This document shows positions 1 to 52,754 of a stretch of DNA of 55,370 bases, piece by piece. A program made the position numbers and the translations under genes. The notes under the pieces are model-generated. The model was given only the letters and a program-made list of their open reading frames with translations, was not told the origin of the DNA and searched no databases. The first letter of the stretch is position 1; the number at the start of each line of letters is the position of its first letter. Origin of the DNA: Rhizaria sp. SCN 62-66 (taxonomy: Eukaryota); the NCBI GenBank assembly GCA_001724265.1, contig MEDY01000317.1:1-55370 (forward strand), written 5' to 3'.

Positions 1-2750
1 ACACCGCGGCCGCCAGCCCGCCGCCGCCGCCGCCGCCGGGGCTCGCGAGCCCGGGATTGAGGCCGGTACCGGCGCCGGCGCCGGCGCCCGCGCTGCCGAT
101 GGCGTTGGCGTAGCTGGGGCCGTTGCGCGCGGCGACGACGTGGGGCCAGTCGAGCGCGCTGCTGCCGTGGCTGAGCTGCCGGCGCTGGTGCTCAAAGTAC
201 AGCCGCTGCGCGTCGCAGTCGCCCGCCCCCGCCCCCGCGCCGTAGTAGCTCAGCCCGCCCTGGCTCTGACCGAAGCTCTCGCCCTGGCTGTGAAGATGGC
301 CGTCGGCGCCCACAGTGCCGGGCGAGAGCGCGTCGACGTAGTGTCCGTGTCCGAGCCCGAGCCCAAGTCGGTGGGCGTCGGCGGCGCCGGGCGAGAGCGC
401 CAGCCGCGGCGAGCCCATCGGCAGCGGGCCGTCCAGCGACAGCGATGGCGCCGAGTCGTCGCCGTCGCCGCCGGCGGACTGTGCGCCGACCAGCGCCCTG
501 TCGTCGCCAGCCTTGGCACTGGCACTGCTCGCAGCAGCAGTTCCATTCATAGTCGCAGTCGTCGTAGGCGCTGTTGCGGTCAAGGCGGCCTCCCGCCTGT
601 TGCGCTGCCGCTCGAGGCTGAGCCAGGACCCGGCCTCGATGACGGACGCCGAGCCGGGCGCGGCAAAGCCCACCCCGAGCGCGGAGCCCAAGAGAGCGGA
701 GCTCACTAGCGCGGAGCCAGCGGTCGAGTGCAGCCCGGAGCCCGCGAGGAGGGAGCCGGGCACCGAGCCCAGGCTGAAGCCGCGACCGCGGCCGCCGAGG
801 CTCACGCCCTGCCGCAGCTGCGACAGCTGCTGCTGCTGTTGCAGCGGCTGCTGGCGCGACAGCGAGCGGGGACCGAGGGCGCTGGCCCCGGCACTGGCCC
901 CGGCGTTGGCGCCACGGGCGGCGCCCAAGGCCCTCTGCGCACCACCGCTGCTGAGGCCGGCCCACGGCGAGGTCGTTGCGGCTCCAGCGCCAGCGCCAGC
1001 AGCAGCAGCAGCAGTGTTGCGCTGCCCCTGCCCCTGTCCCTGTCCCTGCGACTGAGACTGAGACAGAGGCGGGGCGGGCCGGCCCATCGACAGCGCGAGC
1101 GGCCGCTGCTGAGACTTGCCCTTCCCATCGCCGCCGGGCCTGCTGCCGCCCCGCGCGCGCGAGCCCGCAGCGCCGCCGGCACCGGCGCCGCGAGCATTGT
1201 CCGTCGCAACAGCTGCAGCTGCAGCAGCGGCCGCGGCCGCGGCGGTGGCGGTGGGGACCGCCGCCGAGGGCCGCGGGCGCAGCGGCGAGGCCAGCTCCGC
1301 GCTGTCGTACGCGTCGCTGTCGTACGCGCCGGCAGACGCAGCGGCCGCAGTAGCAGCCGCGGCCGCAGCGACAGCAGTGGCGACGGGAGCAGCGGCGCCG
1401 GGAGGGAGCCCGTCGGCGGGCGCGGGCGCGGGCGAGAGCGAGGGGAAAGACACGGGCGCACAGTCACTATCGTCGTCGTCGTTGCTGCGGGCGTGCGCAG
1501 TCGCGGCCGGCGCGTAGTCGGGCTTGCGGCCGTCGGCGTAGTCGTAGCTCAGGCCCAGCCCCAGCCCAACGCCGAGGCCGGCGCCGTCGCTGTCGTCGTA
1601 GTGTGCGTAGCCGCTGCCGGTGAGCGCGCGCGCCGCGGCGATCGCGCTCATCGCCCCCGCCTCCTCACTAAGCCCGCCCGTCTCGCCGCCGCCGCGGGGG
1701 GCGTGAGTGCGCGCCAGACTGCGGCCCGCAGTCGCGGCCGTAGCGGCGTTGGCTGCTGCTGCTGCGGCGGCGTTAGCTGCTGCAGCGGCGGCTGAGACTG
1801 AAACGCGAGGCGGGCGGTAGGAGCCTAGCGCGCCGCTGACGTCGCTCTCGACCAGGCTGTCGTCGCCGTAGCCGTAGCCCTCGGCGTCGCCGTCGTCGTA
1901 GCTGTACTCGTACTCGTCAAAGTCGTGCTGCGGCCGGTAACTCCCGGCAGCAGCAGCAGCAGCCGCAGCAGCAGGCGTGTTCCGGTTGCCGTGACCAAAG
2001 CGACTAGTCTTGGCCCTCGGAGCAGCAGTGACCACGAGAGCGCCCGCGCCCGCGTCGGCGTCCACAAGCAGCGCGCCTGCGCCCTTGCCGGTCCGCGCCC
2101 GCTGTTGCAACTGCGGCTGCGGCTGTCCGAGCGTGTGCGCGAGCAGCGGGAGCGAGTTGGGCGCGAAGATGAGGCGCAGGCGCAGCGCGCGGAGCAGGTA
2201 GGGCAGCGTGGTGACGGCGTACAGCGCGGAGATGAGCCACAACGTGCACGAGCAGTAAGCGCGCGAGGCGGGCACGTAAGCGTCAAGGAAGAAGAGCCAG
2301 AAGACAAGGGCGACGGAGCCGGCGCCCGCGCAGAGCATAAGCGGTAGCGAGCGTGACTTGAACGGGTGCACATGACGCCTAAGCAGACAAAACAAAGAAA
2401 ACGCGAGTTATTGAAAAAAGAAAACAAAAAAAGTAGTTTTGAGAATTAAAGGTCTACTATGATTTGATGTTATAGCGATTAATGCAGAGTCTGTTGCGCA
2501 ATAGAGAATGATAGGAGACGTACCGATTCCAGGCCATGATAAGCACAGGACACATGTAGACCGTGAGAAGCACGCACCACGCAATGCCGTAGGACCGCGC
2601 TGCCGTCAGCAGCGAGCCCGTCTGCCCACGCAGGTCCTCATAAGTCTCGAACACGAGCGCAAGAAGGATACCTAGCGCGAGTACAAGCGTGCACAACCAG
2701 CCCAACACGTAGCAAAGCACCACCGACAAGGGCGCGGAGGGGCGCCGCAT
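1..2750 (-). CDS. Multi-pass membrane protein resembling the N-terminal helices of 7TM (RGS-7TM/class C-like) receptors, 3' end outside window; exons 2750-2524 and 2378-<1
   Basis: Exon 1 has two hydrophobic stretches. A GTACGT..TAG intron (2523-2379) joins in frame to give AWNR-RHVHPFKSRSLPLML..SVALVFWLFFL..CSCTLWLISALY..PYLLRALRLRLIF. The frame then appears stop-free to the window edge (hence absent from the ORF track) and is low complexity. Confidence 0.7.
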
Positions 2751-3582
2751 ATCGTTTTAGGATCTAACTGCGGCGTAATTTATTTCGTAAAACCAAAGAA
2801 AACGCACGTACAAAGTTCGGTATGCAGGAACTATGTCTCGTGACGACGTATTCCGCGAGTTCAAACAAACTTTCATTCTCCCGTTCCGCGTCTCCGCGCC
2901 TCCTTGCTTGACTGCAGACCTGATGCGGAAGCAGATTTCAAACGATACCCCAATAGATACAATATATTATGGTGCACATGCCTGCGTACCATAAATAACA
3001 CCGCGCTTTTAGATGGTAAAGTACATTTTTATGTGTAATTTGTGAGTTTACATGCATATAAACGGTGAGTGGTCTCCTTGCTCACGGTCTCTTCAAGACT
3101 GCGTAGTAGAAAAGAAGATACACAGCAAAGTGTAAAGCGGCCAAGGACTTATTGAAGCAAAAAAAGAGTTTGAAAACATCCATATCCTAGATGCATGTTA
3201 TGCGCAGTTTTTTTCTGCATTTGAGACGTAGATAAACTCATCTTCGCACATCACTCCTCCCAAAAAGATTTTGTGGTCGGCTGCGGTGGGCAACCGAGCG
3301 CTAAACTTTCATGTCATGATATGCGATAGAATCTTCGTGGAGTTCCGATTGTACACGTTGTAACAACAGAATATAGTGTTTCATTATGGATTCTTTGTGA
3401 AAATCGCCTTTTCTTAACCGTATTGTGTCTCATCCTATCTTTTTCTTACATGTGGTTTCATACACAATCTCTGACCGTATCCTATACAAGATTCGCCTCT
3501 CTCTTGGCCTGTTAATCGATAAAGTGAGATTTTCGTGCGTGAAAACAACGTATATGGTGTTAGATAACACGTTTACTACAAA

Positions 3583-6500
3583 ATGGAAGGCGATCTCAGA
3601 AACATTCACGCCGCACTGGCTCCCATGATGTCATTATCTAAAGTGACAGTCAACGAAGTAATCTAGCTTCAGAACGCTATCCATTGTTGCCATATGATTC
3701 CCGATTGCTTACCAGTTCTAAATGAGACCGGTGCCATAGAAATTCTTTTGCACGGACTTGAAGCTGCTGTTATTGCTGATGTCATGGGGGACGAAGCAGA
3801 AACCCGTGTGGAAGCCTACTTGGATCTCTTTGGGGAGATCGTTGGGTATCAAGTCGACGATTACTACGAGTCCAAGTTTATTCAAGTCGGAATTGACATG
3901 CTCGCCTAGCGCGAGGCGGCTGATATGTTTGCTGCTATAGCGCTTCGCTACGAGGGCGCTGCGTTTCGCTGCCTCTGCCTCACGCGCGCTGTGGCGATGT
4001 CGCGGTCGCTGACGACCGCGGCTCGGCGGCGTGCGATGCGCTGCGTTCTCACGTACATGCGACGGAACTGCGACGAGGAGCAGCAGCTGCACTTGCAGCG
4101 GCAACAGCAACAGCAAGAGGCAGGGGCTGCACCGGACGATGGTAACGATGACGACGACGACGACGACGACGTAAACTCTCAATCCTACAAACGCTTTCTG
4201 TGCCAGGACTTGCTTTGCGGGACTGTGACTTCGTTGTGCTCGCGCTGCGACCCGCCGGTGCCGTACTCCGCCGTCGCCGGGTTTGTTCCGCTGCTCCGCG
4301 CAATCCTGCGGCGCCACTCCAAGGCCGCGGGCTTCGACGCCAACCTGCGCGAGGCCGTCTACGAGGCCCTCGACAGCGTCTTCAACCTGTGCGGAAGCGT
4401 CAACAAGACCGTCATCAACCCGCAGCCCGCAAGCGCAAGCGTGTGTAACGCTGACGCAACGGCGCACCTCCAGGATGGAGCCGCCTTGGACGCTGAGGAC
4501 GCGCTGTGCATGGATGATATCAGGGACTTCGCGCTGAGTCCTGAGTTCAATCACATCTTTCTCGCGATGCAGGACGAGACCACGCTCTGGTCCCACGGCC
4601 CCTACCCGCCGCTAAACCTGCTGTACAAGCTCGCGGCCGTACTTGGCGCCGACACGCTCCGGCGCGTCTTCACGCCCGCGCGGCTCGCCGCGGTGCGCCG
4701 CTTCAGCTCCAGCCCGCACATCGCCCACTGGCCGCTCTGGCAGCAGCTCCTGCCGCTCACAGGGCTGCTGGCGCGGCTCGCAGAGGTGTTTCCGGCGTTT
4801 GCGCAGCGGATTGTCGTTGTCGGCGACCGCGGCCACGACGACAACAACGACGACGACGACGACGACGTTGGCGGTGATTATGGCGATGACCGCCGGGCGC
4901 GTGGGCTACGGTTCGTGCTCGAGCAGACCGCGGCGAGGTTTGAGAGCGTCCGCCTGCGAGACCCCGACATCTCCAACTTCAGCTTCTACAAGAGCTGGAA
5001 CCACGAGCGGATGCGGCTGCAAGACGACGTCGTGCGCCTGCTCGAGCGCGTCCTCTCGCCCGCAGCTGACGCCTCAGCCCAGGACAGCGCCGCAGTCGCT
5101 GCTGCCGGGGGTGCTGCTGCGGCTGACTCTCCCGCCGCCGCCGCAGACCCGCTGGCCGTGCAGCATCTGATCGGCAGCGGCGCTGTGCACTGCTGTGTTG
5201 CGCTGCTGCGGGCCGCCGCCCTGTGGGTCTCTCGCAGCCCTTCCACTGACCGGAGCGGCCGCGGCGACCAGGAGGGCCGGGACGCCGCCGCCGAGCCGGG
5301 CGCGAGGGCCGTGGCGCGGTTGCTGCGCTTGCTGGGGGCGATGCTGCTTGCCAGCTTCCAGGCTGCCGGTGCGAGCGGCGCTGACACCGCCGCCGGCCCG
5401 GACGCGTCTGTCCCTGCTGCCGCTGCCGTCGCGCCCGACGGCGACGGCGACACGACACCTCATAAGCCGCCTCAGAACGCTTTCATCGCGTGCTTTGCAC
5501 GCGCCCGCGGCTCGCAAGCGCTTGACCTGCTGCTCTACGCCGAGTGCACGCAGGCCGACGACAGCCCCGCGCGCGCGGAGCTCGCCCGGCTGTGCGCGCT
5601 GCTTGCGGGCGCGGGCGCGCGGTCCGACGCCAGCGGGCCGGCGGCGGCGCCTGCAACCGACACCGAGAGGGTGCGGCAGACGGTCTCCGACGTGCGCGCG
5701 TTTGCAGAGCCCTACGGCGGCGACTGGCAAACAGCCTTTGACAATTACATCACGTTCTATCTCAGGAACTGCGGCTACCCACCCGCCCAGCCACTCAACA
5801 TCCAACAGGTCATCGCTTACTCCCGCGACTTGAACGGTAGCTGCAGCAACCATAGCAGCAATAACAGTGGCGGCAGCGGTAGCGCGCCTGCGTCGGTCTG
5901 GAGCGCGCCTGCGCCGTCGCCGCCGTCTGCGCTGGCGCTGGCGCTGCTGCAGGCGCGGTCCCGCGAGCGCGTCCACGCGCTCGCGCGCGACCCGGGCGGC
6001 ACCAAGGCGGCCCGCGGGGACGGCGGCGCGGCGCCGCGCCTGCGCCAGTCGATGTGGCTCTACAACACCGTGACACGCGCCCGCGATGTGTCGACGCTAG
6101 TGATCGAGCTCGACGACGCGCGCGTGCCCTCCCACGCAGCACACTTCCGCGCCGCGGCGCGCACGGGCGCGCTGGGCCTTTTCGTGCACCGCTGCTTTGT
6201 TCCCGCCGCCTGCCGGGCCGCGGCAGCGCTGCCCTTTGTGACGCTGTTCCGGCTGGAACGCCTCAATTCGCCCTGTGCAACCGCGCCACTGGCGCTGCCC
6301 GCGGTCGACGTCGTCTACGGCGAGTACGCCGCACCCGCGACCAACGCCGCCGCGAGCACCAACGAGGCGTACCCCGTCGGCACCCTGCTCATGTATCCGC
6401 GCGCCGCCGTGCCCGCGACCGCGAGCGCGGGCGCGAAGCCGGCGCGCGACACGCCCGTATTTATCGTCTTCCGGCCGTGCCCGGTGACGCTGCTGCTGGG

Positions 6501-6696
6501 CGCGGTGCCGGTGGGCCGCGTACGGTCCTGCGTGTCCGGCCACCTCGCCGCGCCGCACGACGCCGGCGACGCGCCCTTTGACGTCACCGTGCTCAAGAGC
6601 TTCGCGGACCGCTGCGCCGCGAAGACGTGCTGCAAGTGCAACTCGAACGAATGGTCGAGTTTCGGGAGTGCGACTGTCATTAAGGATACCGTATGA
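3583..6696 (+). CDS. Divergent ARM-repeat (importin-alpha-like) protein with a degenerate C-terminal cyclophilin-like domain; 1037 aa if two in-frame TAG codons (3664, 3907) are read as sense
   Basis: The 923-aa ORF 3925-6696 is in frame with ORF 3694-3909 and with an ATG in AAAATGG context at 3583, separated only by TAGs. It has Leu-rich helical repeats and shares motifs with the 12524 gene. The C-terminal LVIELDDARVPSHAAHFR..FVHR..GTLLM..FIV..VPVGRV follows the cyclophilin motif order. Confidence 0.7.
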
Positions 6697-12523: not shown

Positions 12524-13987
12524 ATGGCAGTTGCAGACTTGATGTCGCTTTCCCCAACAACGCAATCTAAAAAAGTGGAAGTGATAAAGACAGTTGTCAT
12601 GACGACCAGGATGTCAGAGTTAAAGGAGTTAATTGCTGTGTGCCTCGAGCGGGACCTCTTTGACTATCTTGCGCGGCTTCTAGATTCCTCATTGGATGAG
12701 CAAGACCACGACTGCACGCACGAGATAGTCCAGCTGCTTCAGGCCCTGGTGAACATGTCGACGCCCGCGGTCCTTGGGGCGCTGCTCGACTGCGGCGGCC
12801 TGGCTGAAGCGCTCTGCCGCGCGTTCACCGATGCGCAGCCCGACGCCGTGGCTACGGAAGCCGCCTGGCTGCTGGGCTGCCTTGCCGACATCGACCGCGA
12901 CGCCGCCGACGCGCTGGTCCGGCGCGGTGTGTTCGCCCGCGTTTGCGGGTTTATGTCCGAGCTGTACAGCGACAACGACGCCCCCTCGTTCGGAAAGGAC
13001 CTGAACTGCTCGCTGGCCTGGATTTTGAGCAAGTTCGCCTGCGCGACGCCGGCGCTGTCCCCGAGCGTGCTGGTGACGATGGTGCCGCTGCTGGGCCTTG
13101 TGCTGCACCGCGTCGTTGCGCGCCCGCACGCGTTTACTGCGCAGACCCTCGCCGTAAAGTCGCTGGCCCACATCTTCGACGCCGACTGCGACCCCGCGTG
13201 CTTCGAGAACCTCGTTGCCGGCGGCGAAGACAGCGTCTTCCACGCTGTGCTGGCCGACCTCGGCACGGACCACTCGGGACCCCGCGCCGCGCTGCTTTTG
13301 GTGGCCAAGGTCGCCGCGCTCAAGGGCGACGTCGCGGAGCGCGTCTTCACGCCGGCCGTGCTCGAGCGCCTGCGCGCATTCGCGTCGCGGCCCGCGTCCA
13401 ACGGCACGGACGGCTTCAAGGAGCAACTGATGGCAGTGGTCTCGCACCTGATGTGCAAGGGCCCTGCGATGGCGGCGCGCGTGTTCGCGTCGAACCTGCT
13501 GCAGACGGTGCTCGCGCGCGTGCCACCGCCGCCGCATAAAGGCCAAAGCTGGCACATTCTGTGGACGTTTATGAACGCTATGTCGACGATGGTCGCCGCT
13601 GTGCTGCATGCGGCGTCCGCGAGCGACGACAGCGACGGCGGTTCCCGGCTGGCGATGGCGCTGCTGCTGCACGACGCGGGCGTGATGAGTCACTGTGTGA
13701 AGGTGATTGCAGCTGCCACAGCCACGTCTGTGCTGCCTCCCACAACTTTAGTCGAGGTGATAGCTCTTATGATCGCGTCTGGCGACACGAACCCGGACCC
13801 CGCGGTGCTAGGCAAGGGCGCCAAGCCGCGCAATGTCTTTCTGGACGTATTCCTTGCAGAGGGCGGCCTCGGCGCGATGATGTGGTTGCGCCAGAGGAAG
13901 TTCGGGCAGGCGAGCACGACGAAGCTGGACTCGCTTGTGGAGGGTATTCTGGGAGGCATTGGGAAGGGCAATGCTGTGCCCTAGTGA
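12524..13987 (+). CDS. Divergent ARM-repeat (importin-alpha-like) protein, paralog of the 3583 gene
   Basis: 486-aa ORF with EAAWLLGCLA and LAWILSKFA (ARM helix-3 W motifs) and a C-terminal NVFLDVFLAEGGL. Ends TAG-TGA: 13984 under the standard code, 13987 if TAG is sense. Confidence 0.8.
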
Positions 13988-14877
13988 TGTGGGTCTGTTT
14001 TTTTTTTTGTTTTTAAAATACGTTAATACACATTTTCCCACTATTTTTATTTTTTTCAGCAAATTTCCCTTTGTAGCCATGACAGTGAGTCAGGCAGATG
14101 TGTCAGTTGCTCGCAAGTCTTGAATATGTATCGAAAGACGGCAAGCAGCATCACAAGTGAATCCATAAATACAATGTATTGTATATAAACAACAGAGATT
14201 TCTTTCAAAAAAACTTGAAACTAGCTGATTTGTTGACACATATCACAAAGTTCGCATAACAGCTTTCAAGTTCATGAAACAAATGCTCAAAGTTGCAACG
14301 TGCATGACAATCTGTAATCTATATTATACAGACAAAACATGAAAGCTATAAGCTACTTAAACATCCTTGCTGCCTATAATCTTCCTCTTGCTACACGTCT
14401 TTGAGAGCCCGAGCGCAGATGAGCCAGCTGAAAGCAGTGGCGCAACTTAAAGAATACGCTTCCAGTCTGAGTGGGAGCTGCAATCTTCGTGTTCAGACTG
14501 AAATCGACTAAATATACAAGGTTGATCAAGATAACTTTCACTTCACATTAATGTTAACTTGTTTAAAGACTATTAAAAATATTCATTTCTTGCACTGCAG
14601 CTGCTTTGCAGTATAATATTGTGGATTGGTTAAGTTGATCCCATTCTGCTTCCCTTCCTCTACATGATGTTCTTTGACGCGACATGTATCACGCTTAAGT
14701 ATAGATTCGATGCATTTTCAAGTTGTATCATACTTGTTATGTTATTTTATTTTATTGAATATAATTACCGAGACATCTTATAGTATGTTTATATCCCGCC
14801 GCTACTAACTCTTGATCTACTCTCGCACTTCCACCCATTCTGGCGACTCCATCTCTCTCTAGCTCTCTCGCCTCAAC

Positions 14878-17443: not shown

Positions 17444-19903
17444 ATGCAGTCGAACCCCTTTGTCTCCGCGCCGCCCACTGGCGCGGGCTCGTCCTTACTG
17501 GCCCGCTTCCCCGGCTCCGGCCCTGCCGCGACGCCCGCGCCCCAGACGGAGCAGGCCCGCGCGGCGCGCAGCCCCTGGCTCGAGGCCTGGGCCTCCCCCG
17601 CCGCCGGGCTAGCGCGCACCTCTACCAAGCTCTGCGCGCTCGCCGACCTAGGCTCCGACGGCGCCTCGCGCTTTGTCGTGGCCACGGCGGCCCCCGCGCC
17701 GCGCCTCCGCGTCTTCGGCGGCACCGCGCTGGAGAAGGAGCTGGCCCTGCTCGACTCGCCCGTCGCGCTTGCCACCTTCTACCCCGAGCGGCCCACCGCG
17801 CGCTCCGAGCCGCTGCTGGCCGTCGCAGCGGGCGCGGCGCTGTTCGTGTACCGCGCGCTGCGGCCTTACGCCAAGTTCGCGCTGCCGCGCGTGATGTCGC
17901 CCGAGAAGGACCGCATGGTGTGGGAGCAGGTCGCCGCCGCGCCCGCGGTGACGGCCGCGCTCACCGAGCAGCTCCACGCCATCCTTGCGCAGGCCTACGC
18001 GGCCGGGCACGAGCTTTCGGCGCGCTCCGTTGACTACCTCAACCTTGGCGCGGCCTCCGCGCTCGCCAACGCGGGCGTCAACGCCGGCGCCGGCAACGCC
18101 GGCAGCGACGCGAACTCAAGCAGCAGCAGCTACAGCAGCAGTGAGCAGAAGCAGGACGGCGACGACGACGCGACCAAGAGCGCCGACGCCAGCGCCGACG
18201 CCAGCGCTGACGCCAGCGTCGCCAGCGCGGCCGGCGCCGCGCCCGCCGAGTCCGCCGCCGAGGCCGCGCGGGCGGCGCTGGCCGCGCGGCGCGTGGCGTT
18301 CGTGACGGCGGCGCGCGCGCAGCCGCACCGCGACGCCGCCGCCGTGACGTGTCTGGCCGCGGTGCGGCGCGCTGCGATGGCGGCGGGCGAGGGCCACGGC
18401 GTGGGCGACCGCGTGCAGTCGACGCTCGTGGTCGGGACCGAGCGCGCACAGCTGCTGTTCCTCAACCCCACTGTCACTGCCGTCACGGCCACGGTCACGC
18501 TGCCCGCGCCGCCGGTCAAGATGCTCGTGCTGGCCGGCAACGACGACGCCGCGGCGGCGTTAGCTGCAGGCGGCAATGCCAAGAGCCTGCTGCAGGCCGC
18601 GTCCCCGTCGATGGCCGCGGGCGGCGCCGGCGCGGGCTCGGCCGCAGCGGGCGCCGACGACCGGCTCTACGTGGCGTGCCGCGACGGGCGCATCTACCTG
18701 GTGCATCGGCAGAAGCTCGTCGGCAGCGTCGTCGACACGCGCGGGCTCTACTGCGACTTCTGCCTGCTCGACGCGGGTCGGCTGCTGGTGGCCACTGCCG
18801 ACGCGCAGTTGCAATGCTACTACCTGCGCGGCCTGCGCGCCTACTCGCTCGCGCTGCCCGCGGCGGCCGTCTCGCTGACGCCGCTGGCCTCGGCGGCCGA
18901 CGCGGCGACGGCGACGGCGGGCGCGGGCGCCGTGGTGCCAGTGCTGGTGGCGCTGGCCAACGGGGAGATGCGCGTCTACGCCGACCGCCGCCTGACGCAC
19001 CAGTCGACGCTGCCGTCGCCAGCCGTGGCCGCGCGCTTCGGCCGCTACGGGCGCGAGGACGGCGCGCTCGTGCTCGTGCTCGCTTCGGGCGCGCTCCAGG
19101 TCAAGCTGCTGCACCGCCACGCGCAGCTCACCGGCAGTGCGGTCGCCGTCGCTGGCGCTGGCGCTGGCGCTGGAGCTGCTGGTGCTGGCGCGAGCAGTGT
19201 GAACGTGGCCGCGGGCACTGCGCTGCCGCCGGCGGGGCAAGACGTGCCGCTGCCGGTGCCCAAGAAAAGCCACCTCTTTGTGCAGCAGGCCGCACGCGAG
19301 GCCGCCGCCGCCGCCGCGATGCACGCCGCGATGCAGCGCGACCTGGCGCGGCTGCGTCTGCTCACTGCGCGCGCGCTCGCCGCCGCCGTCGGCGCGGGCG
19401 GCGGTGGCGCCGGGGCCGCAGGCGCGTCGGCCGCCGCCTCCGCGTCCTCCGGCGGCGGCGGCGGGCGCGGCGGCGCTGCGCTGCGCGNCGCCGCCTCCGC
19501 GTCCTCCGGCGGCGGCGGGCGCGGCGGCGCTGCGCTGCGCGTGGAGACGCAGGTGCTGGGTCTGGGCCCCGCGTTCGTGCTCGAGGTGACGGTGCGCAAC
19601 ACTGGTGCGCGGCCCGCGCACGGCGTCGTGGTGACCGTGAGCGCGGACCCGCGCGCGTTCCGCGTCGAGCGCGGCGCCGCCGTGCTGCGGCTGCCCGTCG
19701 CGCTTCCCGCGCTGCCCTACCGCCTCACCGTCCCGCTCGCTGTCGCGGCGGGCGCCGGCGCAGGCGCGGGCGCGGGGGCCACGACGGGCGCGGTGACGGG
19801 GGAGGTGCGCGTGACCGTGGCGACGGCGGGGGCGGATGCGCCTGCCGTGACGGCCGTCGTACCGATGCCCACCGTGCAGTTCGACGCCGCTGGGGCCGCT
19901 TGA
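17444..19903 (+). CDS. BBS1: Bardet-Biedl syndrome 1 protein (BBSome subunit)
   Basis: WLEAWASPAAGL, ALADLGSDG, LFVYRALRPYAKFALP, LVVGTE, FGRYGREDG, LPVPKKSHLFVQQAARE, MQRDLARLRL. One N at 19488 sits at a probable assembly join. Confidence 0.92.
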   Translation: MQSNPFVSAPPTGAGSSLLARFPGSGPAATPAPQTEQARAARSPWLEAWASPAAGLARTSTKLCALADLGSDGASRFVVATAAPAPRLRVFGGTALEKELALLDSPVALATFYPERPTARSEPLLAVAAGAALFVYRALRPYAKFALPRVMSPEKDRMVWEQVAAAPAVTAALTEQLHAILAQAYAAGHELSARSVDYLNLGAASALANAGVNAGAGNAGSDANSSSSSYSSSEQKQDGDDDATKSADASADASADASVASAAGAAPAESAAEAARAALAARRVAFVTAARAQPHRDAAAVTCLAAVRRAAMAAGEGHGVGDRVQSTLVVGTERAQLLFLNPTVTAVTATVTLPAPPVKMLVLAGNDDAAAALAAGGNAKSLLQAASPSMAAGGAGAGSAAAGADDRLYVACRDGRIYLVHRQKLVGSVVDTRGLYCDFCLLDAGRLLVATADAQLQCYYLRGLRAYSLALPAAAVSLTPLASAADAATATAGAGAVVPVLVALANGEMRVYADRRLTHQSTLPSPAVAARFGRYGREDGALVLVLASGALQVKLLHRHAQLTGSAVAVAGAGAGAGAAGAGASSVNVAAGTALPPAGQDVPLPVPKKSHLFVQQAAREAAAAAAMHAAMQRDLARLRLLTARALAAAVGAGGGGAGAAGASAAASASSGGGGGRGGAALRXAASASSGGGGRGGAALRVETQVLGLGPAFVLEVTVRNTGARPAHGVVVTVSADPRAFRVERGAAVLRLPVALPALPYRLTVPLAVAAGAGAGAGAGATTGAVTGEVRVTVATAGADAPAVTAVVPMPTVQFDAAGAA

Positions 19904-20246: not shown

Positions 20247-21246
20247 ATGACTCCGTTGCGAGTGTTCTTTCTGTTTTCTTTGGCCATTGCTGGCTTTTTT
20301 CATTTTGCATCTGCAAAGCGTGTGAGTACGTCAACATATCTCGCCTTTTGTCAACACCAGCTTGCTTCCTTCTTCGACGCAACTTGTGTTTTGAAAGCTC
20401 TGTTTGCTCATGCGTCTCGATATTGTCATGCTGTAACTGCACCGCCATTAAGACACGCTGGCGCACCCTGCCCCGGGCTCGCGCGATCCGTCAATGACGC
20501 TCGTGGGCACGGTGCACGGCCGCCGCGTGTACATCGACCTCTCGCCGGGCAGCGTGGCCCTGCGCGGGCGCGCGCGCGGACGCGTGCCGCTGCCGCGCGA
20601 GCCCATCTACTCGCGCCCCAACGCCGACTTGGGCATCAGCGCGCGCCTCGCGCCAGCCGACTTCACGCTGGAGAACCCTGGCATTCCGCGGCCGTACACC
20701 AACTTCTCGCGGCCCGAGCCGCTGCGCATGCCCAAGCCGGCCCCGCGGCCGCCCGCGCGGCCTTACGTATCGCCGGCGCCGCGGCCCGTGGTCGTGATTG
20801 GCGCCGCGAACCGGCCCGCACGCGCGCTGCCGGGCGCGCAATCGGTGCCGGTGCCGCGGACCAACGGGCCTATTTGCCTCGAGCAGGCCGGGCCCGGCGC
20901 AAAGCCGCTGCCGGTGACGCCGAGCATGGGCAACACCGGCCACGCCGCCATCCCCTCCACGTCCTCCTCCTCAGCGCTGCCGGGCGCCAGCGGCAACAGC
21001 AACAACGGCAACAACGGCCCGACCGTGCCGGGGCTCTATGTCGACCTCTCCCCGCGCGGATTCGAGCTGCGCGCCGCGGCGCTGCGCGAGCGCTACGGCC
21101 CCGCGTACCGCCCGCCGCCGGGCCACTACGAGACTCCCCAGCCCACAGACATGCCTTCGACGGCAACCTCTACGACCCCGACGATGACCAACTCAGCGAC
21201 AGCTTACGCCGCTGCTACTACTGCGCCCAGACCGGCTGCGGCGTAA
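20247..21246 (+). CDS. Putative secreted Pro-rich orphan protein; exons 20247-20325 and 20453-21246
   Basis: The signal-peptide exon MTPLRVFFLFSLAIAGFFHFASAKRV joins in frame to the 250-aa ORF 20494-21246 via a GTACGT..AAG intron (20326-20452). Internal repeat Y[IV]DLSP; TAA stop. Confidence 0.6.
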
Positions 21247-21774
21247 ATACACATGTAACAAGTAAATACACCGCACTATTTCAGATTATAAACAGTTTGT
21301 TGTATTCATATCTGCTCAAGTTTCAAGTCGCTGTAGAGTGTTTTCAAGATGCACGAGGGAGCCAAAACGCGTTTGTGGTGCTGCCGTGCACATAGCAGCA
21401 GTGGTACGATTCCAAACGTCTACGTCGCTGTAAGTTTGTAATTGCCCTGACACCGTGTGTCATCGTGGATAGCGCATATTTGTTTTGTTTTAACTGGTAT
21501 TAACGAGTTTTTTCACTTATAGATTATATTTTTAGCGTATAATGCTCGTTTATGCACCGCAAGACTTGCCTAAACTCGCGCATCAGACCACTGCATTTTC
21601 CTCGATGACGCTATCAACCACTCATCACCCCGTGCTTTGTTTACTTGCACACTCACGTTGTCGCGACTCATTTCATTTTTTTCTAGACGTTTTAACGCAC
21701 TGCCAACCTATTGGTGCTGTGAAACCTTGCAGTATTAGTTTTCTGTTCAAGTTCTTACACTCCCTTCACCAACC

Positions 21775-33659: not shown

Positions 33660-35403
33660 TTAGACCTGGTTCATGCAGTCCTTAAAGAAGGCGCCCAGCT
33701 GGTTGATCGAGGCCATCGACAGCGAGTGCGCTAGACGGGGCTCCTGAGAGAAACAGAAGCAAGAAGAAGAGGTGTTGTAGGAATAGAGGTAAAGAAAGGC
33801 GCAAAGAGAGTACACAAATGAGTTTAAGTGCGAATATAATGAAAGTTGCGATGTAGAATCGTATGGCCCCGAGATGTCGATAAGGTTCATCGAGTCATCA
33901 TTTTAAGCACAGTCCATGATATTGCGTGGTGATATTACAGATAGAGCGAGCACGCACCTCGGTGAAGTGCGCGACGGTGACGCCCTTCTTGTCGAGCCAC
34001 TCCTTGGTGGCGCGCGCGTACTTAAGCGGCACGACTTGGTCCGCGGCGCCGTGGTAGATGAACAGCGGCGTCTGCTTCTGCACCACGAACCTGCAGCGGC
34101 GAACGCACGGGGTTCACGTGGGGGTACACGTGGGGGGTGCGCGTAAAAGAAAATAGGAAAAATGAGTTACCGTGAGCATAACAAACAGATACGGAAAAAT
34201 TAGTCAATGTAGAGCAACCATGGGGCATATCGTTGTGTTTATAACAAACAGAGAAATGATAGCAAACTTGCTAAGCGAATAGAGCGTGAGATACAAGTTA
34301 GAAGCAACGTACTCCTCGCGGTAGGGGATGAGGGCGTAGCCGGACATGACGCCCAGTCCGCCGAGCTGCTCCGCGGAGCGCAGGCCCATGTGCAGGGTCA
34401 TGGCGCCGCCCTGTACAGCAGCGAGTCGCGTAAGAAAACAAACAAGAATGTAGTTGTGAATGTGGGGGAGAAAAAAGGCAAGGATATAATACACGTATCA
34501 TAAGGACAGATTCGAGCTTATCGTGACGTATTTTCAAGTTAAAACGCGCCAAAAATTCCTAGTTTGCGTCTCAAGGTGTGCTTTAATAATTGAGTGTTTG
34601 TACGTACCTGGGAGAAGCCGCCGAGGAGGACGCGCTTGTAGGAGCCGAGCGCAGAGGCCTCGGCGTCGATGAGCTCCTGGACGAGCTCGGCAGAGGCCAG
34701 GATTGACTCGTCGTCCTGCTTGTCCTACGCTCGCAGTCGCCGCGATCGCAGTATCGCAGGAGAAACAATATAAGCGAAGGAAAGATGGAGTGAGTTGACA
34801 TATTTGAAGACAAGGTTATAGAAGAGTTTGAAGATCAAAGCAATCAAGTGAGTACACGACCACACATGTATACACATAGATCGAATAGTTAGAAATTCGG
34901 ATCTATATTGGCGTCACCACACGTACCTCGAAGCCGCGGTTGCTGCCAAGCGTCTTGATGTCGTACCAAGAGGGCATGACCATGCCGCCATTGACCGTGA
35001 CGGGCTGCTGCGGCGCGTTGGGCAGGATCACCTTGACGGACTTAGGCAGCTTGAGCATGTCGAAGACGTCGACAAAGCTCTCGCCAGCGTCGCCGAGCCC
35101 GTGCATGAAGATAACGGTGAACTTGTGCTCGCTCTGCGCGGGCAACACCACGGCGCGCTTCAGCAGGCGCGGCGCCGGCTTCGCGTCGGTCGACATTAGG
35201 CGGACGGGCTGCAGCGGCGGGCACGCGGTGCCCACGGAAGACGACGAGGAGAACGAGGCAGATGGCAAACAAGACGCAGCGGCGGATGCAGAGGAGGCAG
35301 CGGCGGCAGCGACGGGGGAGGTCGCGGTGGCGGCGGCGGTGAGAAGGGCGGCCGTGGCACACAGACGCAGCGGGGAACGGCGGAGGAGAGTGCGGGTAAG
35401 CAT
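33660..35403 (-). CDS. Acyl-protein thioesterase / lysophospholipase (LYPLA/APT family); exons 35403-34927, 34724-34608, 34410-34313, 34090-33958, 33743-33660
   Basis: IFMHGLGDAG, PVTVNGGMVMPSWYD, GGFSQGG (Ser), HGAADQVVP (Asp), LAHS (His). All four GT-AG introns are phase-compatible; TAA stop. Confidence 0.93.
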
Positions 35404-36209
35404 TGTGCGGGAGAGCAAGAGAGGCGAGAGCGAGTGTGTTGTGTGTTTGTTGTTGTTCACAGGTGCGTGTCAACAGCAAGTGGCGAGGAGAGGGGGGGTG
35501 GGACGCGGGGGGAAGAAGACGAGAGGTGGAAAAGCGGCTGTGAACAGCGTACAAGGTAAGAACAAGGACAATAAGAAGGCGGGCAGTGTGGGCATAACGT
35601 CACAACAACAAGACATTGCATTGGAAGGCTACGCGAGCGAAGGATAGAGAGTGCTGACAGAACGAGGGCATATACCACAGACGACGCAACAGAGATACGA
35701 TTTCATGGGGTAGATGCAAGAATTAGTGTGTACAGTTTTAGTATCATAGAGAAAACAAAGTTTAAGCATTTGAAGTGCGCGTGACATCTCAGGATTACGA
35801 AGGGGATATGCCAAAATGCATTGCATTCGTGAGCCACCACAAGGGATCCGGAGATTCGGTGGGCTGCGACCGCGACCGTGCTGGGGTTGCCTGACCTTGA
35901 AACAAAGTGTAACGTTCTGACACATTTCATCGTAACTAGCGAGTAATACTCAGTGAAGACGTCTAATAAGGGAGTTTATATTATTATTCTATTTTAAAGC
36001 TCCACAAGAAATGTGTTATGACTGGCAAGTCGACATGCACTGTTTGCGTGCCATTCAACGGCTCGCTTCTGCATCACCCTTTTTCCCCCTGCCTAGGTCC
36101 TCTCACACTTGCGCCTCCATCATTTTACACCACTACTATCCCGCAGAAACCGTCACCTAATCGAAGATAAACTTAACTTGGCGCCTCCTTGCCTTTGTTT
36201 CTCTCCGCA

Positions 36210-37497
36210 ATGAGTGACGACAACGAGTTCGGCTCCCCTGCCCCCTCTGCCTCCAAGGCTTCTTCGTCTTCCTCCGCCGCGCGCGCCGGCGCGGCCGAGC
36301 CGTCGCTGCTGACGGACGTCTTTGCGGGCTGCGCGCCCGAGGTTTCCAAGCCTATGCACGTGCCGTCGATCGCGCCCACGAGTGCGGCCGCCGCCGCGGC
36401 CAACGCGGCCGCCGCTGCCAGCGATGACGACGACGCCGACGCCAGCGCCGGCGAGCTCCCTGCCTCTGGCACGCGCCCGCGGCCGCTGCCCGTGGCGTCG
36501 GGCGCGGCTGCGGCGGGCGCGGAGGTGGAGGTGCTGCAGTACAAGGTCGCCGTGGTGGGCAACGGCGCCGTCGGCAAGACGAGCCTCATCTCGCGGCTCT
36601 GCACGCAGGCCTTCGTGCCGCAGTACAAGCAGACGCTCGGCGTCGATCTTTATAAGGCACGCATCGACCTGCCCGAGGGCGTCAAGGCCTCGCTGCAGAT
36701 TTGGGACATTGGCGGGCAGATGCTCAACTCGCCCATGGTCGCCAACTACCTCTACGCCGCACAGGTGCGTAGCTAAATATGTTCTTGCGCTTGTTGGAAT
36801 CTTTAAGCATAATTATTTCTGCTACCTTTATGAATTATCCCAATTTATGACTGATTATATTATTTTACTGAGTATTGGCTCATATAAAACGTATATACCC
36901 CACACATTGATGCGAGATGTCTTGACTGCAGGCGATCGTGTTTGTGTACGACGTGACCAACGCCAACTCGTTCAAGGACCTGGAGGACTGGCTGGCGCTC
37001 GTCAAGCGCCAATTCCCCGCCAGCGAGCTGCCCTACATGGCGCTCGTGGGCAATAAGATGGACTTGACGCACATGCGCGCGATCAAGCCTGACAAGCACG
37101 CAAAGTTTGCGGACGAGAACAACATGTTTTCGTTCCTGCTCTCAGTCCGCCTAGGAGACCTCGTATGTCGTGCTTGCGCTAACAGATGAAATAACTGTTT
37201 ATTATTGTGATGTATCTTTTGTTCCACGCGTTGTGCTGTCATTATAATTGAATATTTTGTAATCTCACTCTTGTTCGTATCATCGCATCGTCTTTGTTTC
37301 TTCGTAACTTATAGGTCGAGGTTATGTTCCGCCGCATCGCAGCCGACCTGGCTGGCGTTGTTTTGACCAAGGCGCACCTGGACGTTGCGCCCGCGGTGAT
37401 CCCCGCGCGCCTGACCAACCACACACAGCACGATCCGACGCAGAAGCCGCTCGCGCTGCGCGACAGCGGCAACTCGTCCAGCTGCACAGTCATGTGA
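36210..37497 (+). CDS. RAB28: Small GTPase Rab28; exons 36210-36764, 36932-37162, 37315-37497
   Basis: GNGAVGKTS, YKQTLGVD, the Rab28-type WDIGGQ, NKMD, CAAX end CTVM; two phase-0 introns; about 105-aa low-complexity N-terminal extension. Confidence 0.92.
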
Positions 37498-44960: not shown

Positions 44961-47199
44961 TTAGCGGCGCTGGGCGCCGCCGCCGCCGCGCGTCCAGGCG
45001 GGGTTGAGACCGCTCCAGAGCTGCGCGTCCTTCTTGAAGGTCATCGTGGCCGTGTTATAGAGCGCGGCGACGGCGATGAAGACGAGCGCAAGCGAGGTCC
45101 ACAGCACGATCTGGTAGTGCACCACGGTCTCGGTCGCCTGGGCGGGCCAAGGCAGGATCGAGGCCTTGACGCCAGCGGAGGCCGAGGCGGCGCCGGCGGC
45201 CGAGACGGACACGGACGAGTCGAGCTCGATGAACACGTTGGCGAACGTGGCCTCGCCGTTCGCGCCAGCGACAGCGGGGGCGGAGGCGGCGAGGCGGCGG
45301 GCGAGGCCGCCGACGGCAGCGCGCTCGGCGTTGCCGAGCTTGGCGACGGCCTCGGCAACGCAGTGAGCGCGCGCGGAGGGCACGGCGGCGGCCACGGCGG
45401 CGGCGACGCGCGCGCACGCCTCGGGCGCGGCCAGCGCGGCGGGAGACGCGAAGAGCGAGGGGAAGGCGGCCGTGTTGACGGGCTGGCCCTTGAGCGCCTC
45501 GGCCACGGCCGCCTCGACGGCGGCGCGCTGAGTCTCGGTGAAGGCGGGCGCGGCGGCGGGCGTGCCCAGCAGCAGCGCGGATACGGTGAGCGCGTCGCCG
45601 TACGCGGCCGAGGCGGCGTTGCGGAGGTCGCCGAAGACGGCGTCGACGAGGCGCGCCGCGACGGCGTAGAGGGGCGAGTCGGTGCCGTCGCGGAGGGCGA
45701 TGGGCTTAAGGCCCACGACGGCGGCGGAGAACATGTCGGGCGCGTTGTCAGCGCGCAAGGACGCGAAGGCGTCGCCGGAGAGCGCGGTCGTCAGCGCAGC
45801 CTTGACCGCGGCGAGCTCGTTGACGAGAGCAGCCTAGAGTGCGGGGAGCAAAAAGAAGAGGATGAGGAGAGAAAGATAAGAGTTTGTTTTTGGGGAGATA
45901 TATGACATGTTAAAAAATTTCCCAATTCAAAGTTCAGACCCTACAGAGTGAGAGGCTGTGATAATTGTTATCTCCGCTTTAAGACGTAAATCTGACGTAC
46001 CTGGAGGGGGTCCGCGAGGTCGAGCTGGGGGATGGAGGGCTCGCCGACGAACTTGACCGACACGAGCATGGAGCCCTGCTCGGCATCGCGCGTGAGGCGG
46101 GCCAGCGGGGACGAAAGCACAGAGACGGGGTCGGCCATCGCGGCCTCAGTGGCGGCGATGAGCGCGTTGGCCGTCAGCGCGTTGCTGGCGGCGGAGAACT
46201 TGCGCGCAGAGTAGTCAGTGTAGCGCGCAGTGCCCGCAGCCGCGTCGGCGGCGATGGTCGCCACATTCCAGTTCTGCGTGTTGAGCGCGGACTCGTCGTC
46301 GCTGGTGCCGAACGAGGCGGCCAGCTCGGGGTGCAGGCCGAGCGAGTTGGCGAGCTTCTCGTTGCCGGAGACGGCGACCTGGAGCGAGCGGCCGTCGAAC
46401 GACTGCGCAAGGCGGTCCGCCACGGACGCCACGGCGGGCGCGGCGGCGGGCGCGGCCGTCATCGCGGACACGACGTCGCCCTGCTGCGGGGACGCGGCCC
46501 AGGAGCAGGCCGTGACGCCGTGCACGCGGGGGGTCACGCCGCGCACAGCCGTGTTAAGCAGCGCCAGCGGCGAGGCCAGCGCGGCCGAGGCCGGCGTCGA
46601 GACACGGGCGCCCAGCGAGATGGCTGAGTTGGAGAGCGTCGAGAGCACGGGCATGTGGCCCTCGTTGAGCGCAGTGACGCCCGCAGAGTGCACCGTGAAG
46701 AGCAGCGCGGCCTTAGAGAGCTTGGCGCCGGCCTGCGCGGGCGCGAAGTCGGGGTTCGGCGCGGCGACGCCCAGCGCGTGCGAAAGCACGTCGGCGACGT
46801 TGGCGGCGTTAACGGGCGTGCCCGAGAGGTCCGCGAGCGCCGGGGAGGTCTTGTGCGCAACGAAGTAGGCGTCCGAGGCGGTCGCAGCGGCGTCGGAGTT
46901 TGTGATCAGGAGGTTGCCGCCGCGGGGGTACGCGGAGGCGGCAACGACGGACAGGGCAGAGGGCTCTGCAAGGGGAAAGATAAACAGAAGCAAATGAAGA
47001 AGGAAGTAAGGTTGGTGAGGTCAGAGCGCGCAGTTTTAAGGCAACGGAACGGCCTTCTCAGGCGGCGGCCGGGCTAACCACAGTTACAGGGCCTAGGGCA
47101 GAGAGGGTAGTTGGGACGGATTTGGGACGTACCGGCGACGTCAGTCGCGCACGCAGCTCCGGCAACAAGGGCCAGGAGAGCAACACACGCGGTCTTCAT
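44961..47199 (-). CDS. ATP6AP2/(pro)renin-receptor-like type I membrane protein (V-ATPase accessory); exons 47199-47133, 46965-46001, 45833-44961
   Basis: Signal peptide MKTACVALLALVAGAACA; VADVLSHALGV; C-terminal YQIVLWTSLALVFIAVAALYNTATMTFKKDAQLW matches the renin-receptor TM/tail pattern; two phase-compatible GTACGT introns. Confidence 0.75.
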
Positions 47200-50937: not shown

Positions 50938-52754
50938 ATGCTCGGCACCGTGGCTATTCTGCACAAGACTGGCGAGTGCCTCTTCGAGCGCAATTACGAC
51001 GGCGCCGCGCTGCCGCTTAACGCGCTCATTTCCGCCTCGTCCTCGCTCTCGCACCTCGCCAAGACGGCCTCCACCGCCGCCGCCGCCTCCGCCTCGGCCG
51101 CCGCCGCCGCCGCCGCTGCCGCCGGCGCCTCCGGCTCAGGCCCTGGCTCCGCGCCCGCCGCATCGGCCGCCGCGCTGGCCGCTGCCGCGCTGGCCGCGGA
51201 CGCGGATATCCCTCTGAGCCCGCGGCTGGACGCCGTGTCCGATGTCGCGCTATCGCAGTGTGGCAACAGTCTGCTCGCCGCGCTTAAGGTTGGGCCCTAC
51301 ACGCTGCTCGCCGCGGCCTCGGCGACCGCGGCGACGCCGCATCTGCTGGCATCGCTGCTGACCTCGCTGCAGTCGCTGCTGCACTTCTTTCTGGGTCCAT
51401 TCGCGCTGCTGGCCGACGACCCCGCGCCCCTGCGCGCGCTCTCGCACCTGATCGAGGCTCAGATCACCCGGTTCTCGAGCGACTTCGCGGCCCTGGTCGG
51501 CGCCCCGCCCTCAGCGCCCGTCGACGCGGCCCTGCGTGGCAGCCTGGAGCAGGTTCTGGCCACGGTCGAGAGCGCGGACGCCGTCGTCGGCTCAGGGCTC
51601 TTCCTAGGCGCCGCGGTCGTGCACTCGCGCCTGCCGCCCGCCGCACTCTACTGGATCTCGGCGCTACTTGCGGCGGCCGCTCCGCTCGCCGCTGCGACGG
51701 CGACAGGCGCTGCCAACGCTGCGGACAGCGCGCGCGCGGGCGCGGCTGCTGCGGCGGCGGTGGCGCCGCGGGTGCGCGTGGTGCCGGCCTTCACAGGGGG
51801 CCGCTGGGTTAACATCATCATGGTTCAGGTCAAAACCATGGTACGGCTTGCTATCCGCTTTTCAAGACCTAGTTTGCGTTTGTTTTATGCTATATGAAGA
51901 TATATACGCTTACAGAGATTTGTTCTACTGGTTTTCTTTGTTATTATTGCTGTAATTAGGTTCTTGTGTTGCTGGCGTCGATCCGCGCGCCCTTCCCGTC
52001 GCTGCTGCCGTTCCTCGCCGACCTCGAGGAGGTGCTGCTCGAGGCCCACCTGCCGCTGCCCGACGAGGCGCCCCCGCAGCAGCTGCGCCAGTTCGCCGGC
52101 CCCGACACGCTGGCCTTTGTCGTCGTGTCCCGCGAGACAGGGCTCGCGCTCGCACCCACCCCCAGGCTCACCGCCAACAGCGGCCTCCCGCAGCTCGTCA
52201 GGTACGACGCTGGCAGAGAGCGAGTATTCAACTTGAACAGATCTTATGTGACTTGAAGCGCAATTCAATACGTTTGTACGGCCCAATCAATGATCTTTAA
52301 CTGGTTTTCACGTTAATTTCTAACTTTATCTGTTGCTCTTTCTACTTGTTGTTTTTATTTGTGCGTGTATATCTTAGTTCTTTCGCGTGGTTCTACGCCC
52401 GTGCCGCAGCCGTGCTGTCTGGCACCACCATCGGCAGTGTCACACTCGCCACCAAAGGTCCGTCAATTGCCCCGCTTATTCTAATCTAGGGACACATTCA
52501 CACTTGGTTATTAGTTTATTTCACCGATCCATATCTGTTCTATATCATTGTATCTCACAGAATCATCGTTTCTTTGTTTCTCTCTTTCTCGCACACACAC
52601 AGGCTACCGATTCCTGGCCGAGTTGCGGGCGACACACGCAGTCTATTACCTCACCACAGACGCGTTATCTTCCGCGGGCATTGAGGCTGCCGCGCAAGAG
52701 TCCCTTGCCCTCGCAGTCGCCCATAACGCCATCGACCCCATCCCCACCGACTGA
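50938..52754 (+). CDS. Tri-longin domain protein of the Fuzzy/Mon1/HPS1 family; exons 50938-51840, 51960-52201, 52378-52457, 52603-52754
   Basis: N-terminal VAILHKTGECLFER longin start, LQSLLHFFLGP, GSGLFLGAAVVHS; three phase-compatible introns; TGA stop. Subfamily uncertain. Confidence 0.65.

Follow-up and report, generated by a model that had tools for sequence, protein, structure and literature searches.

In-frame TAG codons in a fast-evolving, metagenome-only family of helical-repeat proteins: translated codons or ordinary stops?

Contig MEDY01000317.1 of assembly GCA_001724265.1 (Rhizaria sp. SCN 62-66), 55,370 nucleotides long and referred to in its whole length as the window, carries on its forward strand a gene for a protein made up of a region of helical repeats and a domain at the C-terminus. 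Its standard-code open reading frame (ORF) specifies 923 amino acids and is preceded, in the same frame, by 114 further codons that are interrupted by two TAGs. These 114 codons are the ancestral N-terminus of the protein's family; both TAGs are real; and the frames of related loci in another metagenome are interrupted by TAG far more often than by TAA or TGA. We put the probability that TAG is decoded, or efficiently read through or suppressed, in this lineage, so that a protein of 1037 amino acids is made, at slightly less than one half (about 0.48). The strongest competing explanation is that TAG is an ordinary stop codon in a gene that has been shortened or is dying.

If the TAGs are translated, the gene would be a full-length member, 1037 codons long, of a fast-evolving family that combines helical repeats with a cyclophilin-like domain. 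UAG would be inefficient as a terminator inside genes, with UAA and UGA terminating normally, and a UAG-reading tRNA would decode it, whether it is a rare sense codon or is efficiently suppressed. In-frame TAGs would arise by single-base change from NAG and TNG codons at weakly constrained and weakly codon-biased sites and would persist because they are translated, TAA and TGA at comparable sites being purged. That ribosomes read through the two window TAGs is something that we infer from the pattern described below.

A reading frame interrupted twice by TAG

From the ATG at 3583-3585 the frame reads MEGDLRNIHAALAPMMSLSKVTVNEVI, a TAG, LQNAIHCCHMIPDCL and onward to GIDMLA, a second TAG and REAADMF, and then runs into the ORF 3925-6696, which ends in TGA. 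The total frame from ATG 3583 to the TGA at 6694-6696 comes to 1037 codons, with the TAGs at 3664-3666 (TAG1) and 3907-3909 (TAG2) as its only interruptions; the 114-codon extension contains no TAA, no TGA and no frameshift. The initial annotation had described this frame, with TAG at 3664 and 3907 and neither TAA nor TGA, and re-reading bears the description out. The stretch that is open with respect to TAA and TGA begins at 3568, right after an in-frame TAA six codons 5' of ATG 3583, and that ATG stands in a good start context. The codons between the two TAGs have a coding-like composition (G+C content 0.64 at first and 0.29 at second codon positions, GC1 and GC2), and the extension as a whole shows a GC1>GC2 periodicity with about 0.5 G+C at third positions (GC3).

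Both TAGs are real and stable, they are not assembly errors, and TAG2 is present in RNA. The source data of the window contig are bioreactor and wastewater metagenome runs. In X2 and X3, DNA contigs over 2400-3612 and 3622-4214 show no difference; these two sets are filed under different studies, but their contig records are identical over the whole stretch and probably represent a single data set deposited twice, not independent evidence, and they are counted once here. X4 stems from a different study, of a later year, and spans 2909-3850, including TAG1, again without a difference. The polyadenylated-RNA run X5 provides one contig, 3808-4112, that has no differences and no gaps and holds both TAG2 and ATG 3925. 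Its cover of the window gene is patchy: that contig reaches TAG2, and no X5 contig lies over 3583-3807. X5 has no depth in the spacer bins 2400-3572 and 13739-14100, both of which the DNA runs cover, and it is therefore argued to report RNA. For the 71-amino acid segment bounded by the TAGs there are records from 6 contigs of 3 sources, and a strain variant of the 923-amino acid protein, differing in at least one residue, has also been called from Met115.

The extension as the N-terminus of a protein family

The read-through protein served as query in an exhaustive phmmer search for relatives. (A word-based homologue search had found nothing beyond the window's own 923-amino acid protein.) The yield was 88 relatives, all of them unnamed metagenome proteins, of which the closest, P0090 (994 amino acids), has an uninterrupted N-terminus. 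With X placed at the TAGs, the 114 residues on their own align collinearly with P0090 residues 12-124, across both TAGs, at an E-value of 3e-8. In a 17-row alignment Met1 of the window protein falls in the first-Met column of P0090, P0005, P0037, P0068, P0071 and P0081, and the motifs L..AAL.P..SLS and E.G..ILL..L also match up. The extension has diverged no further than the N-termini of other members: its mean identity with the family is 21.1%, those N-termini are 21.6% identical with each other, and in closer pairs N-terminal identity divided by identity in the region that follows gives 0.57-0.93 when the window gene is one of the pair and 0.52-1.13 when it is not. The extension is thus the family's ancestral N-terminus, coding by descent and without excess divergence; in that sense the initial proposal that it is coding holds. 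The resemblance that had been noticed between its start and the N-terminus of the paralogue at 12524 is also real, and is part of the family signature. The two products are distant paralogues (BLASTP E-value 2e-5) whose N-termini share a start column in the family alignment. The hallmarks of a pseudogene would be mixed lesions and faster divergence of the protein; what is found is TAG only, and divergence like that of intact members.

The C-terminal domain is predicted, from structural modelling, to have the cyclophilin (PF00160) fold in the absence of a sequence-profile match. An AlphaFold2 model of residues 760-1037 has a mean predicted local distance difference test score (pLDDT) of 83.7; its top Foldseek matches in the PDB are almost all cyclophilins (E-values 1e-4 to 3e-3, template-modelling (TM) scores by target 0.5-0.6, identity 10-18%), and a structural match in the Atlas leads to PF00160 clusters, with a TM score of 0.67 by target. 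The domain has no Pfam match at E<=0.01, and a profile search against PDB sequences gave no cyclophilin.

The family is large, fast-evolving, lineage-restricted and confined to metagenomes, with 31 members in a single metagenome and 88 relatives in the database. Its architecture varies: in loci L007-L010 and L012 the C-terminal domain is the only part in common, the N-terminal regions being different, as they are in P0024 and P0034. The calls of P0091, P0012, P0010 and P0044 do not include the N-terminus. The window paralogue, with 486 amino acids, is limited to the helical region. One of the relatives' proteins, P0068, also has 486 amino acids, but only because gene calling broke off at an internal TAG: P0068 is exactly the pre-TAG part of locus L002, in which ~440 more family codons follow in frame. 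Family genes have a GC3 of 0.5-0.66, as against 0.68-0.82 in their neighbours on the same locus contigs, which suggests that selection on codon usage is weak in the family or that its expression is low.

An excess of TAG in related loci

Metagenome contigs were scanned with a profile built from 10 full-length rows, and 31 family loci (L001-L031) were found, all of them in one other metagenome; scans of genome contigs and of viral contigs for the same family produced no relative. In many of these loci tblastn alignments passed through stops, 24 in all, of which 19 are TAG. To keep clear of bias from the way in which frames had been delimited, all three stops were masked alike and the three forward frames were searched with the family profile. 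The profile-aligned stretches of the 31 loci then contain 22 TAG, 2 TAA and no TGA. Three of these TAGs (in L013, L015 and L025) and one TAA (in L021) are located where the profile reaches its C-terminal end, and are possibly natural terminators; dropping them leaves 19:1:0. Family codon usage predicts that TAG should make up 0.47-0.48 of random nonsense mutations. The excess over that share has P = 8e-6 for 22/24 and 1e-5 for 19/20, and would still have P = 5e-4 if the expected share were 0.60.

The TAGs are not piled up in a few dead copies. Their distribution over loci is Poisson-like, with 16, 10, 3 and 2 loci having 0, 1, 2 and 3 TAGs (expected 15.2, 10.8, 3.8 and 0.9). The rate per codon is also alike in the two sources: 2/1,523 in the window's family genes and 17/12,105 in the relatives, or ~0.14% of family codons. 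An origin of the TAGs by a process resembling repeat-induced point mutation, or by CpG deamination, was considered and rejected: the conserved residues aligned with TAG are E, K, L and Q, and the changes needed are of four different kinds (G>T, A>T, T>A and C>T). Mutation bias therefore cannot yield the TAG excess. For an excess that has no source in mutation bias, selection must therefore remove TAA and TGA and spare TAG; in this family TAG is selectively tolerated. The initial annotation had regarded two independent nonsense mutations, both TAG, as the less economical account of the window gene, and the 22:2:0 count in the relatives favours its TAG-specific alternative.

The amino acid that would be inserted is most consistent with Glu, which is a weak best fit to the alignments. 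The TAG1 column is variable (E in 6, A in 4 and M in 3 of 21 sequences), with G in P0090 and E in the window paralogue; TAG2 stands opposite the E of P0090 in GIDALIERNAGELF. Over all TAG columns the log-likelihood is +7.3 for Glu (+10.1 when L026 and L027, the most broken loci, are left out), +3.8 for Lys and -4.1 for Gln. One further TAG column has Q in 26/65 sequences, most are variable, and no W was seen at any TAG column of the family alignment. Gln had initially been suggested, with weak support, opposite TAG1, a suggestion that these figures do not sustain.

TAG as an ordinary stop

A number of observations weigh against translation of the TAGs, and they are best set beside the rival that makes most use of them. 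In that rival, TAG is an ordinary stop, and two nonsense mutations have occurred in the N-terminal part of the gene, the one at TAG2 likely a change of GAG to TAG. What is left would be a shortened protein starting at Met115 or a young transcribed pseudogene, the old N-terminal codons having become a 5' leader that is drifting AT-ward. We consider this a serious contender, at somewhat less than even odds.

Composition and position both speak for it. Taken in bins of 40 codons from the start of the frame, GC3 is 0.53, 0.38, 0.57 and from then on 0.8, with the step exactly at ATG 3925, and this is the expected look of a decaying 5' leader. The low-GC3 zone is also longer than that of any other window gene. 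Such zones are found at the start of 5 of the 13 other genes: ORFs 7122, 12524, 15862, 21775 and 25086 (minus strand) have a GC3 of 0.5-0.7 in their first 40-80 codons and of 0.85-0.97 beyond. They represent either a 5' ramp in codon usage or mis-placed starts, and because of them the reading of low GC3 as decay is complicated. Both TAGs lie within the first 11% of the gene, 5' of an in-frame ATG, where nonsense mutations are most easily survived. That both are TAG is only mildly unlikely by chance (~0.10), TAG making up 32% of random nonsense mutations in the codons of this stretch.

The residues at the TAG columns are open to the same explanation. Those columns that are better conserved do not agree on a residue, having E in 59/66 sequences at a TAG of L030, and K in 50/70 and L in 60/71 at two TAGs of L027. 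All three residues are one base from TAG, as is the Glu opposite TAG2, just as they would be with plain nonsense mutations, and G-to-T nonsense mutations of GAG would mimic the Glu signal. The family does have clearly broken copies: L022, L025 and L026 are frameshifted, and L030 contains a TAA.

Outside the family, in-frame TAG has not been found. The 12 non-family ORFs of the window have none in 8,220 codons; TAGs in their frames, when these are extended to TAA or TGA, are confined to 5' flanks of non-coding composition. Eight long ORFs neighbouring the relatives' loci, taken as frames bounded by TAA and TGA only, have no internal TAG in 6,811 codons (4/8 contain Pfam domains: P-type ATPase, diacylglycerol-kinase-like, NUDIX and GNAT). 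The difference between family and non-family genes has a Fisher P of 7e-7, and within the ~158 kb of the window and the 31 loci UAG is not spread over conserved genes. As for codon bias, even the codons that the neighbours avoid most strongly occur there only 4-6 times less often than in family genes, and the probability of finding no non-family TAG is 0.017 at 5-fold and 0.13 at 10-fold depletion, to which the faster evolution of the family could add. A tRNA gene scan over the same 158 kb found no gene.

TAG may, moreover, still terminate. It ends the window paralogue, and it stands at or just past the expected C-terminus in L007, L013, L015 and L025. The window's 15 apparent gene ends, some of which are perhaps exon ends, comprise 9 TGA, 5 TAA and 1 TAG; given TAG's 24% share of stop triplets in spacers, so few TAG ends (1/15 or less) have a probability of 0.09. 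The single TAG, that of the paralogue, is directly followed by TGA, and a TGA follows 4 codons after the TAG in L007 and 6 codons after it in L025, so that a TAA or TGA comes 0, 4 and 6 codons later in 3 of the 4 terminal cases with a readable distance.

What separates the window from the relatives' metagenome is a further point against translation. The 31 loci have a GC3 of 0.5-0.77, as against 0.85 in the window, and a tblastn search of 13 window proteins against these loci gave no match and no shared neighbouring genes; that the window organism has the TAG trait in common with the relatives is what we infer.

Three things stand against the rival. The lesions of the relatives are TAG-specific (19-22 TAG, 1-2 TAA and no TGA), and no mutational bias accounts for that. 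The extension has neither a frameshift, nor another kind of stop, nor excess divergence. Finally, initiation at 3925 would be hampered by upstream ATGs: one at 3898 would be part of any leader that, like the X5 contig, includes 3808-3924, and if the leader were longer it would be joined by those at 3779 and 3784, whose frames end at or beyond the main start.

A particular form of the translated-TAG reading would be an early or ambiguous reassignment of UAG. A tRNA, probably for Glu, would make internal UAG translatable, the fast-evolving family would gather UAG neutrally, codon-optimised housekeeping genes would have stayed without it, and UAG backed up by a second stop would still end genes. 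We regard this scheme as a doubtful one, to be held tentatively.

Programmed readthrough, splicing and editing

A further possibility is readthrough by near-cognate tRNAs that is programmed by context or structure in individual genes, TAG elsewhere remaining a normal stop. Each of the two window TAGs has C as its next base, and C after the stop is the weakest termination context in eukaryotes; the restriction of in-frame TAGs to one family would also fit. The other features of programmed sites are not seen. The 37 family TAGs have no common downstream motif (the next base is C in 11, T in 11, G in 9 and A in 6), and neither window TAG has a stable structure on its 3' side (fold z-scores +1.15 and +0.52). 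TAG positions differ in every paralogue and are mostly in variable columns, unlike a conserved regulatory site, and most of the product would be lost if ribosomes had to read through twice in succession. We think this explanation improbable.

Removal of the TAGs before translation, whether as small in-frame introns with a TAG acceptor or by RNA editing of UAG to CAG or UGG, is the least probable of all. The organism does have GT-AG introns, such as that of the abhydrolase gene (GTACGT...GCGTAG, ~200 nt), but the X5 contig 3808-4112 is ungapped and matches the DNA letter for letter, 3907-3909 included, homologous residues directly flank each TAG in a collinear alignment, no GTACGT-like donor lies 5' of the TAGs, the known introns of the window are AT-rich and ~100-200 nt long, and the absence of W from TAG columns speaks against editing to UGG. 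The usual signs of an intron (GT...AG bounds, absence from mRNA, insertion relative to homologues) are not seen. An intron, or editing of the majority of transcripts, is excluded at TAG2 and unlikely at TAG1; the splicing test that the initial annotation had proposed thus comes out in favour of an unspliced frame, by RNA at TAG2 and by alignment at both.

Other features of the window

The window is eukaryotic DNA, by its ORF layout, gene content and introns. Its ORFs are long, lie on both strands and have a GC3 of ~0.85, the spacers between them being 35-47% G+C. Its genes include a BBS1 homologue, a CDC14-like phosphatase and a nucleoside transporter, and at least two genes have AT-rich GT-AG introns of ~100-200 nt. 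The host is best explained as a eukaryote that has not been cultured, bears a flagellum, has introns and GC-rich coding regions, and turns up in wastewater and bioreactor metagenomes. Coordinates of the main features are collected in Table 1.

Table 1. Features of the window (positions on contig MEDY01000317.1)
Feature	Position	Strand	Remarks
Ancestral start codon of the family protein	3583..3585	+	Context acaaaATGg; aligned with the first Met of six family proteins
N-terminal region, 114 codons, first helical repeats	3583..3924	+	Two TAGs are the sole interruptions
In-frame TAG1, codon 28, next base C	3664..3666	+	Same in X2/X3 and X4 DNA contigs
In-frame TAG2, codon 109, next base C	3907..3909	+	Same in X2/X3 DNA contig and X5 polyA-RNA contig
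923-amino acid standard-code ORF, Met115 to TGA, GC3 0.83	3925..6696	+	Identical protein on record is P0002
Predicted divergent cyclophilin-like beta-barrel domain, C-terminal	6037..6681	+	AlphaFold2 and Foldseek
Short paralogue, 486 amino acids, helical region only	12524..13987	+	Ends ...GTG CCC TAG TGA; no cyclophilin-like domain
Abhydrolase_2 (phospholipase/carboxylesterase) gene	33898-35469	-	At least 4 exons; AT-rich GT-AG introns ~100-200 nt, donor GTACGT, acceptor ...TAG
Ras/Roc-like small GTPase gene	exons 36177-36776, 36926-37189, 37315-37497	+	CAAX-like end ...SCTVM, then TGA

Two apparent TAG terminators were examined and rejected. The TAG 'end' of ORF 34903-35469 (minus strand) is intronic: exon 1 of the Abhydrolase_2 gene corresponds only to profile positions 4-75 of 217, and the TAG belongs to the start of the intron that follows. 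ORF 20247-21395, which also has a TAG end, is read in the wrong frame; the real gene there, 20494-21246, is closed by TAA. Two open frames, 45968-47020 (minus strand) and 51960-52256 (plus strand), are coding-like, with a GC3 of 0.87-0.89, and have no ATG for 122 and 98 codons, respectively; neither has a Pfam match, and each is probably an internal exon of a multi-exon gene that has yet to be annotated. Most window proteins contain runs of Gln, Asp and Ala codons (at 4063-4170 and 4830-4870, for example), which draw partial contig matches and false 'joints'. A single N, at 19488, lies within the BBS1 gene (17444-19903).

Implications

If the reassignment of UAG is at such an early or ambiguous stage, the lineage would offer, outside the ciliates, an 'ambiguous intermediate' of stop-codon capture from nature. 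The organism appears to tolerate UAG rarely and mainly in dispensable, fast-evolving genes, and an intermediate step of reassignment would be directly observable in it: the contest of suppressor tRNA and release factor, the back-up stops, and which genes adopt the new codon first. There would also be a practical consequence. Standard gene callers cut family proteins at TAG (P0068, P0042 and P0002 are such pieces), and the family, possibly the whole proteome of the lineage, would therefore be mis-annotated in metagenome catalogues. If TAG is instead an ordinary stop, the locus is a truncated or dying paralogue of little interest.

Comparison with known systems

With a unitary pseudogene or a 5'-truncated gene the window gene shares premature stops 5' of an in-frame ATG and a shift of composition at that ATG. 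It is unlike a unitary pseudogene in that it has a single type of lesion (TAG), no frameshift and no excess divergence, that it is still transcribed, and that many paralogues have the same TAG-only pattern. The pyrrolysine UAG of methanogen methyltransferases is another point of reference: it is restricted to particular families, UAG is rare as a terminator in those organisms, and it is often backed up by a second stop. Pyrrolysine occupies one conserved catalytic column per family, however, and its machinery is not expected in eukaryotes; TAG positions here are scattered, mostly over variable columns.

Literature searches brought up neither this family nor any GC-rich eukaryote from wastewater that has in-frame UAG. 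The accessible portion of a giant-virus catalogue describes alternative codes in activated-sludge viruses and contains nothing that bears on this contig (PMC13524828).

Reassignments of UAG alone have been described, in the sections of the reports at hand, for Iotanema spirale (Gln), the rhizarian exLh (Leu), Scotinosphaera (Ser), phyllopharyngean ciliates and Protocruzia tuzeti (PMC5304391, PMC11687900). As in those cases, UAG here stands opposite sense residues of homologues, and UAA and UGA are kept out of frames and close genes. The differences count against a reassignment of that kind in this organism. Where it is established, as far as the excerpted account goes, UAG is frequent in conserved and housekeeping genes (204 in 126 I. 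spirale genes), specifies one residue and is never a terminator (PMC5304391); here it is rare, so far belongs to one family, has no consistent residue and may end genes.

Glu as the best-fitting residue has counterparts in the oligohymenophorean ciliate PL0344, for which the relevant part of the report gives UAG as Glu and UAA as Lys (PMC11687900), and in Blastocrithidia nonstop, for which UAR is likewise given as Glu (PMC12153298). Those organisms, however, are AT-rich ciliates or polycistronic trypanosomatids in which UAA is recoded as well, whereas in the window GC3 is 0.85, genes change strand often, GT-AG introns occur and UAA is a stop. Together with the UAG-only reassignments, the closest known systems are the ambiguous, position-dependent stop/sense codes reported, in what could be consulted of the sources, for Condylostoma, Parduczia and the karyorelicts (PMC4967479, bioRxiv 10.1101/2022.04.12.488043). 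Here too the same codon could be read internally and terminate near the 3' end, with terminal TAGs soon followed by TAA or TGA. Those codes belong to ciliates and involve all or several stops at high frequency, whereas at this locus position dependence is at most suggested by the sequence.

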